Positions 1,419 to 8,162 of a stretch of DNA of 10,637 nt are shown here, one piece after another (positions within the stretch are counted from its first letter, which is position 1; the number at the start of each line of letters is the position of its first letter). The position numbers were made by a program, and so were the translations under genes. The DNA comes from a virus (Duplodnaviria; Heunggongvirae; Uroviricota; Caudoviricetes). The stretch is taken from positions 1 through 10,637 of the IMG/VR virus record IMGVR_UViG_2529292908_000010; one strand, written 5' to 3'. The notes under the pieces were generated by a model. The model worked only from the letters and a program-made list of their open reading frames with translations. It made no database searches and was not told the DNA's origin.

Positions 1419-3890
1419 TTAAAAATCAGCCTGACTCGGGATCAGTTTTTGCCAGATAACTGAAACGTATTTTGCCTGGTAACGGGCGTCATCAAGTGCA
1501 TTATGGCGCTCACCTTCGAATGGAATAGCCGTTCTGGCATCGAAGTCTATGGCTTTCCCCAGCTCAACGATTGTGCGTACATCGCGATCGTTGTAGTAAC
1601 GCCACGGGCAGGGGATCCCCTGCCGTTCGTATGAACGGCGCAAAATCGTGTTTTCGAAGTTGGCTCCATTTCCCCAGACCTGAACAAAAAATTCACCGGA
1701 GTTTTCGTCGATAAATTCCCGCAATTGTAACAGTGCATCATCTAACGGGATTTCATCGGTCATAATGGCAGACTGCGCTTCACGTGATTGCTTCAGCCAC
1801 CTTTTAATGACGTCACGATCAATGACTCCGCCAGCAGTTTCCAGATCGATAGTCTTACTAAATTCCGGTCCCATATCTCCGGTTTGCGGATCGAAAAATA
1901 TTGCATCTATTGAGATAATCGGGGCATCAGGATTTTTGCCCATTGTTTCAAGGTCAATCATCAGATGGTGCCACAACCTGCTGGTGGATGTGCTTTTACG
2001 ATGACCGTTCACCTTAATTAAGGGATTTGCTGTCTCGCCTATTTCATTATTGTCATTGGCATGTTGATCGCCTTCGGTGCACTCCTTGTTCGGGAGTCCG
2101 GCACTTTCTATTTCCTCTGGATCTTTTTCCCGGGCTTCATCCTGGCTTTCTTCGTTGAATGTCTCCTGGTAGGTTGCGTCACCCATCACTGCGCCACAAT
2201 CAGGGCAGTTACCACCACCAGTCTGATTGCATGCGGTACAAACTTTTTCCTCTTCCTGTTGCACGACTGGTTCAGGTTGTTTCGTTTCTGGCTCGTTTTG
2301 TAACGCATTTTGGCTGTTTTGTTCCGCTTTTTGGTCGTACTGTTCCGTTTCTGACTGGTTCTGGTGCACAGAATCGCGGGTTTCAATCCCCTTCACCCAT
2401 TTCGGATCATTCGGGTCGCTAATCCCTTCAACAAATTCACCACGTGATGCAGCGAGCAACTTATTAGCGTCAGGCTGGCTGATACTGGCTGCCTGCATAA
2501 TTTTGTTTACTTCGTCAGCGGTAACTTTTACCAGGTCTGGTTGTGCGGTCGTGTCAGATGCATCAGTATTTTGTTGTGAACCTGTGTATGTGCCGTTTTT
2601 GCGGGCAAAATATTCTTCTTTCGTGATTTCAGTTGCCCCGGCAGCCAGCGCCTTATCCAGACCAGAAAGTTTGTTTGCGCGACCGTATTTTTCGCCATCC
2701 TTGTCGGTGAAGAGGAAGTAGAACGGCCCCTCACGCTCTACAGATGGTTCGACTTCCACTTTGCATTCGGTTTTTTCGTTGTCCGGCATTGCCGTTTCCA
2801 CTGCATCAGCTTCTGGTACTGGCGACGGGAGAGTATTAGTTGTGCTCTGATTTGTTCCTTCATCTTCAAACACGCCCTTTGTAGTCAGGTATTCAGTGAT
2901 GTATTTGTTCAGCGCCACGGGATCTTTGTGAATGTCGATCGGACGTTCACGGACAAGGCCAAAAATAGTCTGACGGTCATAGCCAAGTGCTTCAGGCTGT
3001 TTGCGCATTGATGCCGAGATACGCTTCCAGTCTTCGCGGTCGTTGTCGATAACTTCATTTTTTGCCCAGCGATGGATGCTGCCGTCAATGTTTCCGGCAT
3101 CCACATCACCAGGCCAGAGAGCGTAGGCCAGTTCGTCATCCAGTGTTTTCCATGTCTGCTTGTATTCGCGATGAATGGCAGCAATGACCGGGCTGATTTT
3201 TCCTGTTGAATTTTCAGTGTGCTGTTGATTGGTTCTGGCGCGGGCGAGATCAACAACAGACGTGTATTTTCCTGTTTCCTTGCGTTCACCTTCGCGACGT
3301 TTTTTCCAGATGCGCATCTCTGCCTGAATTTCGGGCCATTTGGCACTAGGCTTACATTTATGCTTAACCCACCCGATGGCATGCAGCTTAAGCTCCGGAT
3401 ACATGGCGTTAACTTCTGGCATTTTCATCAACGCTTCAACGATATGTCCGTCGAATGTTGCCATGTCTTCCTGCAACAATTCCTGTGCGCTAATAACCAT
3501 ATCAACGGTGATGTTTTCACATGTGTCGAACTTAACCATGACAGCGTTCTGTACTTCAGGGGCCAGCTTGTCAAAAGTGACGTTCATCGGATCGGATTCA
3601 GTCTCAACCGGGACAAAGGAAGCAGACTCCTCATCCCAGCGGTTTTCCTGCATATATTCAGCATCCCATGAATCGAGGGCAGGGCGGGGTATGCCAGGTT
3701 TATCCTCGCAGACAATAAATTTATAAGCGCAGTCCTGAGCAGCCGGATAATGTTCCAGGAATTGCCAGTGAAATTTTGCTCGAGCACGGCGTTCGTCGCC
3801 AGCTTCAATGGCTGTGGCTACAGCCACAGCGCCTTCTTCCCTTGTTGCCAGTTCGTCAGGAATAGCGGCGCAAATAAAGACTTTACTCAT
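1419..3890 (-). CDS. Large early-left exonuclease (exodeoxyribonuclease VIII-like) with C-terminal DEDDh/DnaQ-like 3'-5' exonuclease domain and internal Cys4 zinc ribbon
   Basis: 823-aa ORF, ATG at 3890-3888, TAA at 1421-1419. C-terminal motifs MIDLETMG (Exo I), VWGNGANFEN (Exo II-like) and ERHNALDDARYQ (Exo III, H-x4-D). Central C-x2-C-x7-C-x2-C (CTACNQTGGGNCPDC) inside an acidic Q/E/N-rich stretch. Occupies the recE position upstream of xis-int. Family call is from motifs and memory, not a search. Confidence 0.85.
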   Translation of the reverse strand: MSKVFICAAIPDELATREEGAVAVATAIEAGDERRARAKFHWQFLEHYPAAQDCAYKFIVCEDKPGIPRPALDSWDAEYMQENRWDEESASFVPVETESDPMNVTFDKLAPEVQNAVMVKFDTCENITVDMVISAQELLQEDMATFDGHIVEALMKMPEVNAMYPELKLHAIGWVKHKCKPSAKWPEIQAEMRIWKKRREGERKETGKYTSVVDLARARTNQQHTENSTGKISPVIAAIHREYKQTWKTLDDELAYALWPGDVDAGNIDGSIHRWAKNEVIDNDREDWKRISASMRKQPEALGYDRQTIFGLVRERPIDIHKDPVALNKYITEYLTTKGVFEDEGTNQSTTNTLPSPVPEADAVETAMPDNEKTECKVEVEPSVEREGPFYFLFTDKDGEKYGRANKLSGLDKALAAGATEITKEEYFARKNGTYTGSQQNTDASDTTAQPDLVKVTADEVNKIMQAASISQPDANKLLAASRGEFVEGISDPNDPKWVKGIETRDSVHQNQSETEQYDQKAEQNSQNALQNEPETKQPEPVVQQEEEKVCTACNQTGGGNCPDCGAVMGDATYQETFNEESQDEAREKDPEEIESAGLPNKECTEGDQHANDNNEIGETANPLIKVNGHRKSTSTSRLWHHLMIDLETMGKNPDAPIISIDAIFFDPQTGDMGPEFSKTIDLETAGGVIDRDVIKRWLKQSREAQSAIMTDEIPLDDALLQLREFIDENSGEFFVQVWGNGANFENTILRRSYERQGIPCPWRYYNDRDVRTIVELGKAIDFDARTAIPFEGERHNALDDARYQAKYVSVIWQKLIPSQADF

Positions 3891-3985: not shown

Positions 3986-4174
3986 TTATCCAGCCGGTAT
4001 TGCGTTATTCAGGTTCAGCGATACTTTTTTTAACGGGAGGCATTCACCGGGGATTTTTTGTTCGTCCCTTACCTGAATGCAGGATGACTTACTGTCATAA
4101 ATTCCGGTAATCACATTTTGTGGCTCACCCGTTATAAGAAAAACGGTCATCACCAGTGCAAATGCTGAAGTCAC
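3986..4174 (-). CDS. Hypothetical small protein (62 aa), hydrophobic N-terminus
   Basis: ORF with GTG start at 4174-4172 overlapping the upstream stop (GTGA), GGAG 7 nt upstream. N-terminus MTSAFALVMTVFLITG is hydrophobic. No recognisable family; AT-rich context. Confidence 0.4.
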   Translation of the reverse strand: MTSAFALVMTVFLITGEPQNVITGIYDSKSSCIQVRDEQKIPGECLPLKKVSLNLNNAIPAG

Positions 4175-4359
4175 TGCTGTTCTCCGATAATACCAAGTTC
4201 AAGAAGGGCAATTCTGGAAAGTATGGAATTATCATTGAGAAGATAAGGTTCATATTTTCTCATCTTAATGGCATCTTCCGTAAACTCCCGGTTACTGAGC
4301 AGAACACCAATATCAAAACAACCTTCAGACGTATTAACGTTTGGTAATAACGTTTCCAT
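4171..4359 (-). CDS. Hypothetical small protein (62 aa)
   Basis: ATG at 4359-4357 with GAGGA 7 nt upstream; stop overlaps the start of the next ORF. No recognisable family. Confidence 0.45.
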   Translation of the reverse strand: METLLPNVNTSEGCFDIGVLLSNREFTEDAIKMRKYEPYLLNDNSILSRIALLELGIIGEQQ

Positions 4360-5062: not shown

Positions 5063-5509
5063 ATGGACCGGGATGATATTCTTGACAGGGTTTTATATGG
5101 TTATTTTCTTGAACAACTATTCTCTGTAGCGACTGGTCGTCTCGATAAACTTTTCTCAGTGGTGAGTATTATCCTCGGTTCATCTGTCATTGGTGGATTT
5201 ATTCCTGAAGTTTCTGGAGTTCTCATCGTTGTGATAGCAACCGTTCAAACGATTTACGGATTCGGACAAAAGTCAGGTAACGCAATGAGAAAATCCGCAG
5301 AATATCTGCAGCTTTATGATGATGCAGAAAAATATTCCGATTCGGAATTGAAAATGCAGTTAAAGCTCCTGGAAAAAACAGATGATAATATTTGGTCGTC
5401 GCTTAAAGATATCGCAATCTTAAAAACCCAGATCAAAATAGGAATCTCCGTAGAACAACAAGAGAAACTGTCTGCAAAATCCAAATTGATGCGATTCCTT
5501 TGTGGTTAG
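5063..5509 (+). CDS. Small membrane protein, putative superinfection-exclusion / abortive-infection protein (SieB-like by architecture and position)
   Basis: 148-aa ORF, ATG at 5063 with AGGTGA 6 nt upstream. Two predicted TM helices (LFSVVSIILGSSVIGGFI; VLIVVIATVQTIYGF) then a charged helical tail. Rightward gene set among leftward early genes, as sieB is in lambda/Rac. Confidence 0.7.
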   Translation: MDRDDILDRVLYGYFLEQLFSVATGRLDKLFSVVSIILGSSVIGGFIPEVSGVLIVVIATVQTIYGFGQKSGNAMRKSAEYLQLYDDAEKYSDSELKMQLKLLEKTDDNIWSSLKDIAILKTQIKIGISVEQQEKLSAKSKLMRFLCG

Positions 5510-5984: not shown

Positions 5985-6010
5985 GTAAATAACCCCCTTT
6001 TGAGAGGGGG
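5985..6010 (-). terminator. Rho-independent terminator of the repressor/toxin-antitoxin operon
   Basis: Minus strand: GC-rich stem CCCCCT/AGGGGG (6010-5993) followed by UUAUUUA (5992-5986), 16 nt after the parE stop. Confidence 0.55.
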
Positions 6011-6025
6011 CTTTGCTTCGGGGGA

Positions 6026-6313
6026 TTAAGGTGTTACAGGGAACTGTCGGCGGGCGTGAACTACGTTAACAATTTCAATGCCTGAAATTGTCACGCGGTA
6101 CAGTATTATGTAATTGGGGTGGGCTACAATTTCACGTAAACCGGGTACTCTGTCGCTTGGCGGGTATAAATACGGATGCTCAGATAATGGCAGAACGCAA
6201 GTCCTTAAGCGTTTCCACAAACGTTCTGCCGCATCTATGTCAAAACGTGCAATATAGCTGGTTATCTCATCTAGGTCGGTATCTGCGCTTTCAAGCCATA
6301 ACACGGGTAACAT
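6026..6313 (-). CDS. parE: ParE/RelE-superfamily toxin (ParE2-like)
   Basis: 95-aa ORF with RelE/ParE hallmarks (REIVAHPNYIILYRV...IEIVNVVHARR). ATG at 6313-6311 abuts the stop of the upstream antitoxin gene (TAA-ATG). Confidence 0.9.
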   Translation of the reverse strand: MLPVLWLESADTDLDEITSYIARFDIDAAERLWKRLRTCVLPLSEHPYLYPPSDRVPGLREIVAHPNYIILYRVTISGIEIVNVVHARRQFPVTP

Positions 6314-6505
6314 TTACTGTTTGCTCCGTTCCTTGCGCATTTTTGCAAAGCGTTCTGCCATTCTGCGTTCAACTTCGTCATGAGGAATAGCTGGACGTGG
6401 ATCAGCTAGGCTCGCGGCCACTTTTGCACGCAACCATTGGTTATAACTATTTTCTTGCTCGACGGTTTCAAATTCAGAAACCATTGGTGAAAGGGCTGTG
6501 TTCAT
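6314..6505 (-). CDS. paaA2: PaaA2-like antitoxin
   Basis: 63-aa ORF directly upstream of and coupled to parE, GAGG 6 nt before the ATG. Sequence (MNTALSPMVSEFETVEQENSYNQWLRAKVAASLADPRPAIPHDEVERRMAERFAKMRKERSKQ) matches my recollection of E. coli O157 PaaA2; recollection unverified. Confidence 0.8.
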   Translation of the reverse strand: MNTALSPMVSEFETVEQENSYNQWLRAKVAASLADPRPAIPHDEVERRMAERFAKMRKERSKQ

Positions 6506-6542
6506 ATGGTGAACCTCATCTTGTAAGTGCTGGTAAATCGGC

Positions 6543-6716
6543 CTAGGTAACTTTCTGTTGTGCTTCTAGCCACCTTGCAACTATACGATCCATTGCCTCT
6601 TTTTTCTCCTTCATATCTTTTAGCATTTGCTGTTGATCTTCCTCTGGAAATGCGTCAAATGTTTGAAGTAGTTCTTTTTGCCTAGGGGTTATTTTTAATA
6701 TACCCTGTGCCCTGTC
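6543..6716 (-). other. -1-frame continuation encoding the C-terminal domain of the PaaR2-like regulator
   Basis: From the slippery site the -1 frame reads DRAQGILKITPRQKELLQTFDAFPEEDQQQMLKDMKEKKEAMDRIVARWLEAQQKVT*, homologous to the C-terminal domain of the 6925..7338 gene. This frame opens only 4 codons before the slip site and has no usable start. Confidence 0.5.
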
Positions 6717-6937
6717 TTTTTTTCTTCATTTAATGGTAAGAAAAACCAATACTGAGGAAATCCCGTTACTTCAGATAGTTTATCTAGATTAGCTGCTGTA
6801 GGGCTTGAGATACCACAAACCCACCTTTGGACGGATTGTTGAGCAATACCAATTCTGCGCGCAAGTTCTGCTTGACTCCAGCCTTTTGTCAATAGAAGCA
6901 TCTTAATTCTAAGAGCACTAATTTCTAGTACGCCCAT
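6695..6937 (-). CDS. XRE-family HTH regulator, N-terminal part of a PaaR2-like regulator
   Basis: 80-aa ORF with classic XRE motif (LTKGWSQAELARRIGIAQQSVQRWVCG), first gene upstream of the antitoxin. Ends 5 codons after an A_AAA_AAG heptamer, beyond which the conserved C-terminal domain continues in the -1 frame. Confidence 0.75.
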   Translation of the reverse strand: MGVLEISALRIKMLLLTKGWSQAELARRIGIAQQSVQRWVCGISSPTAANLDKLSEVTGFPQYWFFLPLNEEKKTGHRVY

Positions 6938-7338
6938 TTGATATCTCTTGTTTTAGTATGTCTCTCGTCAGGCTCGGCGACCTTGCTGCGCCAACCAACG
7001 TGCAACAAGATCTTCCATTGCCTCTTTTTGTTTCTTAGTTCTTTTATGATCTCCTGCTGCTCATTATCAGGAAATGCACTAAATATTTGTAGCAATTCCA
7101 ATTGGTTAGGGGTTAATGCTATAGGTCTTGATGGCGGAGCTCCTGTTATGTCTTCTGGCTCAATATCAAGATAACCCCCTGGCATCCCATATGTTTGTTC
7201 AATACGTCTAGCCGCCTTTTCGCCAAACGTAGCTTTACCGCTCATTAATTGAGATAAGTAACTTTTCTCTTTAGGTGGCAAAGTCCTGTCTTTGAACCAC
7301 TCTTTGAGGCGTAAACGCCGAATCTCTTTTGTTTCCAT
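6925..7338 (-). CDS. Repressor-position HTH regulator (cI/RacR positional analogue), paralogous to the PaaR2-like regulator
   Basis: 137-aa ORF from ATG 7338 (track starts at GTG 7344), divergent from the Cro-like gene. N-terminal phage-repressor-like HTH (SYLSQLMSGKATFGEKAARRIEQTYGMPGGYLD); C-terminal domain (TPNQLELLQIFSAFPDNEQQEIIKELRNKK) homologous to the 6543..6716 segment. No SD, consistent with leaderless translation. Confidence 0.8.
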   Translation of the reverse strand: METKEIRRLRLKEWFKDRTLPPKEKSYLSQLMSGKATFGEKAARRIEQTYGMPGGYLDIEPEDITGAPPSRPIALTPNQLELLQIFSAFPDNEQQEIIKELRNKKRQWKILLHVGWRSKVAEPDERHTKTRDIKWAY

Positions 7339-7344
7339 ATACAC

Positions 7345-7373
7345 ATTATCTTTAGTAATTGCAAAATAAGCAA
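7345..7373 (-). promoter_or_regulatory. Putative pRM-like promoter giving a leaderless repressor mRNA
   Basis: Minus strand: -35 TTGCTT (7373-7368), 17-nt spacer, -10 GATAAT (7350-7345), placing the start site at or next to the A of the ATG at 7338. Motif-based only. Confidence 0.35.
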
Positions 7374-7377
7374 ATGC

Positions 7378-7407
7378 TTGACTAGTTTGTTTAGTTGTGT
7401 ATAAACT
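7378..7407 (+). promoter_or_regulatory. Putative pR-like promoter with overlapping 20-bp operator-like palindrome
   Basis: -35 TTGACT (7378-7383), 16-nt spacer, -10 TATAAA (7400-7405). Palindrome TGTTTA-N8-TAAACT at 7388-7407 overlaps the -10, 16/20 identical to the one at 5934-5953. Confidence 0.5.
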
Positions 7408-7439
7408 TTATGTGTTCTAAATGTGCAGAGATAAAAGTT

Positions 7440-7721
7440 ATGACGTTAAAGGAATTCATCAAATCATTAAAAACTGGAGAAGCCAAAAAATTTGCGGCCA
7501 ACCTTGGTGTGTCTCCGTCCTTCTTATCCCAAATGGCATCTGGAAATTCACCTGTGTCTCCTGTTCGTGCGTTGATGATAGAAGCTGAAACAGGAGGACA
7601 TGTTACAAGACGAGAGTTGAGGCCTAATGACTGGGAGCTTATATGGCCTGAATACACTGGAAGCACGCCTCCTTCACGTCACAAATATGAACTTAACTCC
7701 AAAAAGCTGATGGGGGGGTGA
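7440..7721 (+). CDS. Cro-like HTH protein (YdaS-type)
   Basis: 93 aa from ATG 7440 (upstream in-frame ATGs fall inside the promoter). Cro/YdaS-like motif KKFAANLGVSPSFLSQMASGNSPVSPVRALMIEAETGGHVTRRELRPNDWELIWPEY. Divergent from the repressor gene. Confidence 0.8.
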   Translation: MTLKEFIKSLKTGEAKKFAANLGVSPSFLSQMASGNSPVSPVRALMIEAETGGHVTRRELRPNDWELIWPEYTGSTPPSRHKYELNSKKLMGG

Positions 7722-7724
7722 TTC

Positions 7725-8162
7725 ATGAAAATCAAGCATGAGCACATCCGTATGGCGATGAATGCGTGGCTGCTTTATCCGAGAGTGGGGCGCAAAAAAA
7801 TCGCTGATGATATAGCAACAGCATATTTTGAGCTTGAAATGACTTATCCACCAATGCATGACACCTCTACGACAGAGGGTATTGGATTGAACATACAAAA
7901 TATTTTTCGCTGGCTTGAAAAGGATACGCCTGATGCTGTTGAAAAAATTCAGGCACTAATTCCGGCGATCCTGACTGTTCTTCCGCGTGAACTGCGTTAT
8001 CACCTCAGTATTTTTGACACTGTTGAGCGCCGTGCATTACTGGCGGCGCAGGAAGCGTTGAGCACGGCAATTGATGCACATGATGATGCAGTCCAGGCCG
8101 TTTACCGGAAAGCGTATTTCAGCGACGGCGGGTCATCCGGCGAGTCTGTTGTGGTGCATTGA
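7725..8162 (+). CDS. YdaT-family protein (CII-position regulator)
   Basis: 145-aa ORF starting 3 nt after the Cro-like stop, G-rich SD upstream. Size, sequence character and position match Rac YdaT-type proteins. Confidence 0.85.
   Translation: MKIKHEHIRMAMNAWLLYPRVGRKKIADDIATAYFELEMTYPPMHDTSTTEGIGLNIQNIFRWLEKDTPDAVEKIQALIPAILTVLPRELRYHLSIFDTVERRALLAAQEALSTAIDAHDDAVQAVYRKAYFSDGGSSGESVVVH

Follow-up and report, generated by a model that had tools for sequence, protein, structure and literature searches.

A single-base loss in an A run probably explains the frame-broken regulator gene beside paaA2-parE2 in a CP-933P-like prophage of Escherichia coli

A regulator gene in the immunity region of a CP-933P-like prophage of E. 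coli is divided between two reading frames at the heptamer A_AAA_AAG, and the break is very probably an ordinary, real frameshift mutation at a mutation-prone A run, and not programmed recoding. The gene is a known kind of prophage regulator with an ordinary homopolymer frameshift, and the adjacent paaR2 orthologue carries a twin defect. The whole stretch of DNA analysed, referred to here as the window, is 10,637 nucleotides long (IMG/VR record IMGVR_UViG_2529292908_000010), and the coordinates given below are those of the window (Table 1).

The truncated ORF of the regulator is listed on the minus strand with 80 codons, and residues 11-60 of its product match the Pfam domain HTH_3 (E 7e-12). 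Near its end, the zero frame reads gaa gaa aaa aag aca ggg cac agg gta tat taa. As the preliminary description of this DNA had reported, a run of seven A residues harbors an in-frame A_AAA_AAG (6722..6716, minus strand). The -1 frame, which begins after a TGA and continues as AGA AAA AAA GAC, stays open for 57 codons up to a TAG at 6545..6543, and encodes the 57 residues DRAQGILKITPRQKELLQTFDAFPEEDQQQMLKDMKEKKEAMDRIVARWLEAQQKVT. Two details of that description had to be adjusted: the ORF indeed stops soon after the heptamer, but six sense codons (TGHRVY), not five, precede the stop; and the -1 frame indeed opens just upstream, but three codons before GAC and not four. The proposed homology of the 57 residues with the neighboring repressor was borne out, as they match the C-terminal part of the upstream gene product with 53-55% identity over 47 aa (tblastn, E ~1e-15), and an alignment revealed the PaaR2-type C-terminal helical domain in both genes through the common motif ELLQ.F.AFP...Q..I/M.K....KKEAM...VARWL. 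Conceptual fusion of the two frames gives a sequence identical to an existing 131-aa E. coli protein, MBB9491035.1. AAAAAAG occurs three times in the window against 4.1 occurrences expected by chance; the heptamer alone is ordinary, and it is the homologous open frame after it that goes beyond chance.

The -1 frame contains no ATG, GTG or TTG downstream of the TGA. It has no start of its own, just as had been claimed, and separate translation of the C-terminal domain was rejected on this ground. The ATG in aaATGaag was also considered as a start site for this domain, but it is out of frame in the A7 allele and would be in frame only with A9. A promoter and terminator scan of 6000-7800 yielded nothing informative for an internal start of the domain.

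Table 1. Coordinates of the two broken regulator genes and of neighboring features in the window
Feature	Coordinates	Strand	Evidence or remarks
parE2-type toxin gene, intact	6026..6313	-	Pfam ParE_toxin, E 4.1e-16; full length, 97-99% identity to relatives
paaA2-type antitoxin gene, intact	6314..6505	-	Pfam PaaA2, E 7.8e-21
Extra AT dinucleotide just before the paaA2 start codon	6506..6507	-	caccATatgaac (caccATatg) against caccatgaac in relatives; otherwise in L006 and L007 only
Stranded C-terminal domain coding region of the second regulator, -1 frame, 57 codons plus TAG	6543..6716	-	Translation; homology to the PaaR2-type domain
Truncated ORF of the second immunity-region regulator	6695..6937	-	74 native residues (complete XRE/HTH_3 domain), six-residue out-of-frame tail TGHRVY, stop; ORF list, Pfam
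A7 run, from loss of one A in an 8-nt tract (AAA AAA, Lys-Lys, inter-domain linker)	6717..6723	-	Longer tract in intact relatives
PaaR2 orthologue (CI-like repressor, METKEIRRLRLKEWF...), frame-broken	6925..7338	-	A 32-aa out-of-frame tail stands in place of the last 18 native residues and runs over the start of the next gene
Former end of the PaaR2 orthologue in its ancestral frame (EAMEDLVARWLAQQGRRA plus TGA), at present out of frame	6968..7024	-	Identical to intact 123-aa HCB7515889.1 and MBB9491036.1
A5 run in the PaaR2 orthologue	7025..7029	-	A6 in all intact orthologues; zero frame aac aaa aag agg caa tgg; C_AAA_AAG at 7030..7024
Divergent ydaS-like (Cro analogue) and ydaT-like (CII analogue) genes, intact	7440..8162	+	Pfam YdaS_toxin and YdaT_toxin; roles from PMC8630535

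The window represents the early and immunity region of a lambdoid prophage of E. coli resembling CP-933P. Its gene order, ydaT<ydaS <-> paaR2 orthologue > second regulator > paaA2 > parE2, is kept in relatives and places the split gene directly upstream of paaA2-parE2, leftward from the divergent ydaS-ydaT region. [quoted passage not shown] Beyond ydaS/ydaT are DUF1376/DnaT and lambda-P-like replication genes, while dicB, DUF1482, a YdfE/Rv2179c-type exonuclease gene, xis and int lie to the left of the module. A repeat search around the divergent promoter detected weak inverted repeats only, and a megablast search of the INPHARED phage collection with the two-gene region returned no match.

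Several other features of the region can be recorded here. The dicB homologue (cell-division inhibitor; 4171-4359, minus strand) is intact and belongs to a leftward operon. A 148-aa ORF at 5063-5509 (plus strand) is opposite in strand to its neighbors and has hydrophobic stretches but no Pfam match; it may be a prophage moron. An 823-aa protein (1419-3890, minus strand) has an Rv2179c-like 3'-5' exonuclease domain at its end and a long low-complexity middle that is acidic and rich in Gln; its relatives range from 811 to 827 aa. Alignments identified the extra AT in front of paaA2 as a third small indel, specific to the lineage of the window; it widens the spacing between GAGG and ATG of paaA2 by 2 nt.

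The label "PaaR2-like" given earlier to the split gene fits its C-terminal domain, but the better match to PaaR2 is the gene upstream. The N-terminal domain of the latter, read from the ATG at 7338, matches PDB entries 7NKV/8C3K/8C3L (E 1.4e-31), the chains of which begin with MQKKE, the experimentally determined N-terminus of PaaR2 (PMC8630535). Because of this match and this N-terminus, the upstream gene, and not the split gene, is assigned as the true PaaR2 orthologue on sequence grounds. The N-terminal domain of the split gene matches generic XRE HTH structures only, and the structure match search found no match between it and the PaaR2 N-terminal-domain structures (MQKKEIRRLRLKEWF...). 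Judged from these matches, the split gene is a second regulator, with an N-terminal domain of the XRE/HTH_3 type and a C-terminal domain of the PaaR2 type. It occupies the same genomic position as does paaR2 in the three-component paaR2-paaA2-parE2 module of the cryptic prophage CP-933P of E. coli O157:H7 (PMC8630535), and its C-terminal helical domain is homologous to that of the adjacent PaaR2 orthologue, whereas its N-terminal domain differs from that of CP-933P PaaR2. Moreover, paaR2 is the only one of the two regulators described in CP-933P, whereas the prophage type in the window has them in tandem.

The PaaR2 orthologue has its own break at an A run, which was overlooked in the preliminary description. 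Its zero frame extends to a TAG at 6927..6925, within the next gene, and its -1 frame restores KEAMEDLVARWLAQQGRRA*, the conserved end of the family; intact PaaR2 orthologues in relatives are 123 aa long. Conceptual repair of either gene gives a sequence that matches a real E. coli protein exactly (MBB9491035.1 for the second regulator, and MBB9491036.1/HCB7515889.1 for the PaaR2 orthologue).

A comparison with intact relatives provides the main evidence on the origin of the two breaks. Over the module, the window shares 92-93% identity with the nearest complete E. coli genomes, in which a 123-aa protein and a 132-153-aa HTH protein are annotated at this place. Ten intact related loci, comprising E. 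coli loci and metagenome contigs (L001-L003 and L009-L015), were compared at the A run of the PaaR2 orthologue (site 1) and at that of the second regulator (site 2). Site 1 is A5 in the window and in the contigs L006 and L007, and A6 in L005, L008 and 10/10 intact relatives. Site 2 is A7 in the window, L006, L007, L005 and L008, and 8 nt long in the intact relatives. It could be read in DNA in seven of the ten, as A8 (L002, L012, L013 and L015), AAAATAAG (L001 and L014) or AAAAAAAT (L003); the other three (L009-L011) did not match the DNA site pattern and were assigned an 8-nt tract from the EEKKDG in their intact 139-aa protein. Wherever the tract is the longer one, the gene is a single uninterrupted ORF. 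A more distant locus, L004, has GAGCAAG at site 2 and a continuous ORF as well. Thus the comparison of A-run length with orthologous loci, which had been suggested as a check, revealed tracts one base longer with one ORF, as a simple indel would leave; this outcome had been specified beforehand as a refutation of programmed recoding. The two one-base changes relative to the intact relatives (A8 to A7 and A6 to A5) both lie in mononucleotide runs.

A protein search extended this picture to at least seven enterobacterial genera, where the family is encoded by one ORF of 131-135 aa (E. coli, Salmonella, Klebsiella, Raoultella, Enterobacter, Rahnella and Sodalis). In most of these more distant relatives, the linker reads EEEQVV or EGDQVV, with no Lys-Lys. 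A pattern scan for the site in species-representative genomes gave no match, and the same scan of metagenomes gave two matches, both intact. The sequences together suggest that the normal product of the second regulator gene is one two-domain protein of ~131-153 aa. The length at the C-terminal end depends on a 1-nt difference at the end of the gene (gttACCtagg in the window at 6543-6550 versus gttC-CTAGG in L001 at 2440-2480 and in L002), which sets the protein at either 131 aa or 153 aa; the 153-aa form overlaps paaA2 by 32 nt and is the state in most E. coli. This C-terminal extension is variable and was modeled with low confidence.

These relatives also bear directly on dnaX-type programmed -1 frameshifting, in which A_AAA_AAG would be an evolved signal setting a fixed ratio of an 80-aa HTH-only form to a 131-aa regulator. 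Such recoding would rely on the same in-frame A_AAA_AAG and the same tRNA-Lys slippage chemistry as dnaX and IS3-family -1 frameshifting, and A_AAA_AAG is among the most shift-prone heptamers, if not the most shift-prone one, in E. coli (PMC4066793, PMC5009743). The slippery heptamer is in frame here, the -1 frame is open and homologous, and the neighboring paralogue also requires a -1 shift at AAA_AAG. However, the orthologues are continuous ORFs with A8 or an interrupted 8-nt tract, the heptamer and the two-frame layout are not conserved among them, the site itself is often non-slippery, and the frameshifted allele, besides being rare, occurs on different haplotypes. Unlike dnaX and IS3-family sites, the split gene has neither a GGAGG-like or other SD-like element upstream of the heptamer (uuaccauuaaaugaag) nor a significant stem-loop downstream: the 67 nt that follow fold at -8.5 kcal/mol (z = -0.81), with 44/200 shuffled sequences folding as well, and the RNA 3' of both slip sites folds no better than shuffled sequence. 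A search of Rfam over 6300-7450 with E values up to 10 detected no frameshift element, only chance-level matches to eukaryotic snoRNAs and miRNAs. The ancestral state, moreover, is one ORF. One-A deletions convert AAA-AAA-GAC to AAA-AAG-ACA in the second regulator and AAA-AAA-GAG to AAA-AAG-AGG in the PaaR2 orthologue; the slip site is therefore an automatic by-product, since loss of one A from AAA-AAA-G in itself yields A_AAA_AAG. Programmed frameshifting with two products, one of the two readings originally put forward, is thus extremely improbable, and the homopolymer indel is the reading that the relatives uphold.

The indel could be real or an error of sequencing or assembly, in which case the A runs would have been under-called in a genome that truly has A8 and A6, with both genes intact. 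At each break, one base is missing from an A run, and errors of this kind are classic for 454, Ion Torrent and nanopore data; one related contig (L017, SRR063742), like the protein P0002, has several indels and looks like noisy data. The A5 run in particular might be a shared artefact if SRR491164 and SRR094133 were prone to homopolymer errors and were the source of the window assembly. Against an error, at least three separately assembled read sets are 100% identical to the window with both breaks included; among them, L006 (SRR491164) and L007 (SRR094133, two samples) are identical over 4.3 and 3.1 kb, respectively. The A7 allele is also present, with an intact A6, in two assemblies of a different haplotype, L005 (GCA_023188415.1) and L008 (SRR18965766), which are 97-98% identical to the window. 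The window contains 70 homopolymer runs of at least five nucleotides, only two of which are associated with a broken gene, and the two repressor genes are the only frame-broken ones among its recognizable genes; an A5 run is also short for a consensus-level error. Because the same allele occurs in five separately assembled contigs, A7 probably arose by mutation in the genome rather than in the reads, and a real mutation is likelier than an error since only two genes are broken amid so many runs. A sequencing or assembly error is accordingly quite unlikely. Of the two origins that had been offered for an indel, real pseudogenisation is then favored.

The broken form is rare. The exact 80-aa product was found on five contigs, as against intact forms on well over 2000 contigs, and the A7 allele does not define a clade. 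In other E. coli the same linker is hit by different indels: L016 (SRR10569353) has lost, at ~2080, the G after its A8 run; P0029 (WP_309487425.1) begins with MKKKKDRAQD, which would require an A9 tract; and in P0015 (WP_432208006.1) an A5 run close by has grown to A6. On this sequence comparison, the linker A tract appears to be a mutation hot spot and not a signal.

A further reading of the same variation is an adaptive hypermutable switch, in which tract lengths of A7, A8 and A9 would toggle the regulator and hence prophage immunity or toxin-antitoxin expression. E. coli does have these several tract lengths (A9 being deduced from P0029) together with further indels in nearby A runs, and in the A9 allele the C-terminal domain would gain its own ATG. 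Nonetheless, the tract is short for a classical contingency locus and is interrupted in many strains, off alleles are very rare, and tract length was seen to vary between strains only, with no sign of switching within a strain; a neutral hot spot in a dispensable gene would be expected to produce recurrent indels just as well. We consider such a switch very improbable.

An ordinary mutation agrees in all respects with slipped-strand homopolymer frameshifts in decaying prophage genes, which show the same one-base change in a run and a rare allele on more than one haplotype, with further small indels in neighbors of the same module. Nothing of substance differs from pseudogenisation by slippage, except that two tandem paralogous repressors are hit alike. 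The simplest history would be an allelic series (A6,A8) -> (A6,A7) -> (A5,A7). One A would first have been lost, probably by replication slippage, from the A8 tract that encodes Lys-Lys in the inter-domain linker, after which the adjacent paaR2 orthologue would have lost one A from its A6 tract.

As for the consequence, the intact orthologue P0048 was modeled with AF2: residues 1-70 form a five-helix HTH domain of good confidence (pLDDT 81-93), followed by a linker and a helical C-terminal domain of lower confidence (helices at 71-80, 85-94 and 99-128). Given this domain layout, a break after residue 74 is predicted to leave the complete DNA-binding domain without the C-terminal domain. The gene would now yield an isolated 80-aa DNA-binding domain, with its helical C-terminal domain untranslated. 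PaaR2 was reported to octamerise (PMC8630535), and a truncated product that does not oligomerise would be expected to repress poorly and to bind its operators weakly, as lambda CI does after cleavage of its linker.

The mutation may nevertheless not abolish the full-length protein. One-bp deletion mutants of lambda cI are suppressed to ~10% full-length protein, largely at A_AAA_AAG and with no programmed signal (PMC10861913), and this suppression, like "savior" or compensated indels (PMC5009743), involves the same kind of single-base deletion with A_AAA_AAG in the slip window. It is the most likely route to any long product here. Unlike in the lambda cI mutants, the heptamer of the split gene lies exactly at the deletion site, so that unprogrammed -1 slippage by the single tRNA-Lys of E. 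coli would regenerate the exact wild-type protein, perhaps at 1-10%. Because of the slip-prone heptamer and the ~10% suppression in lambda cI, a low level of wild-type protein is expected, and the A7 allele may be leaky rather than null. Any leakiness would be incidental and not an evolved recoding device. Transcriptional slippage was set aside as the main route of rescue, as a run of no more than seven A probably gives little of it.

Loss of both CI-like repressors should derepress ydaS/ydaT, O/P and dicB, and harm is expected from this. Some remaining repressor function, or a repressor acting in trans from a different prophage, therefore seems to be needed, and this need leaves room for functionally important slippage. 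It is conceivable, if unlikely, that both one-base deletions are "leaky by construction", and that a few percent of full-length PaaR2 and its paralogue, together with an excess of free HTH domains, keep ydaS/ydaT and dicB silent.

Related prophages and proteins differ in how these repressors are arranged. In L004 (E. coli RM8082, 1438-2339), an HTH_3/PaaR2-CTD regulator stands alone beside ydaS with no PaaR2 orthologue, whereas the prophage type in the window has both in tandem; the two regulators may therefore represent alternative or stacked immunity specificities. In Yersinia and other bacteria, proteins of ~210 aa (including P0141, P0143, P0147, P0151-P0154 and P0157) join the PaaR2-type N-terminal domain to a peptidase domain of the S24 (LexA/CI) type. 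Prophage repressors thus exchange their C-terminal domains, which are self-cleaving in some and of the PaaR2 helical type in others.

The annotation of this immunity region is hereby corrected: of the two tandem CI-like repressor genes, the upstream one is the PaaR2 orthologue, and both carry a frameshift in this lineage, whereas the genes for toxin and antitoxin and for the Cro and CII analogues beside them are intact. An in-frame A_AAA_AAG followed by a homologous -1 frame closely resembles recoding, and caution is warranted in reading such a layout, which here is the trace of an A lost from Lys-Lys codons. If the strain truly lacks both repressors, the question arises as to how ydaS/ydaT and dicB stay quiet, the candidates being residual slippage, a PaaR2 that tolerates its altered C-terminus, or a repressor that a different prophage provides in trans. 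Should the leaky reading be true, the A tracts would act as a coarse, reversible dial on prophage immunity and on the expression of paaA2-parE2.
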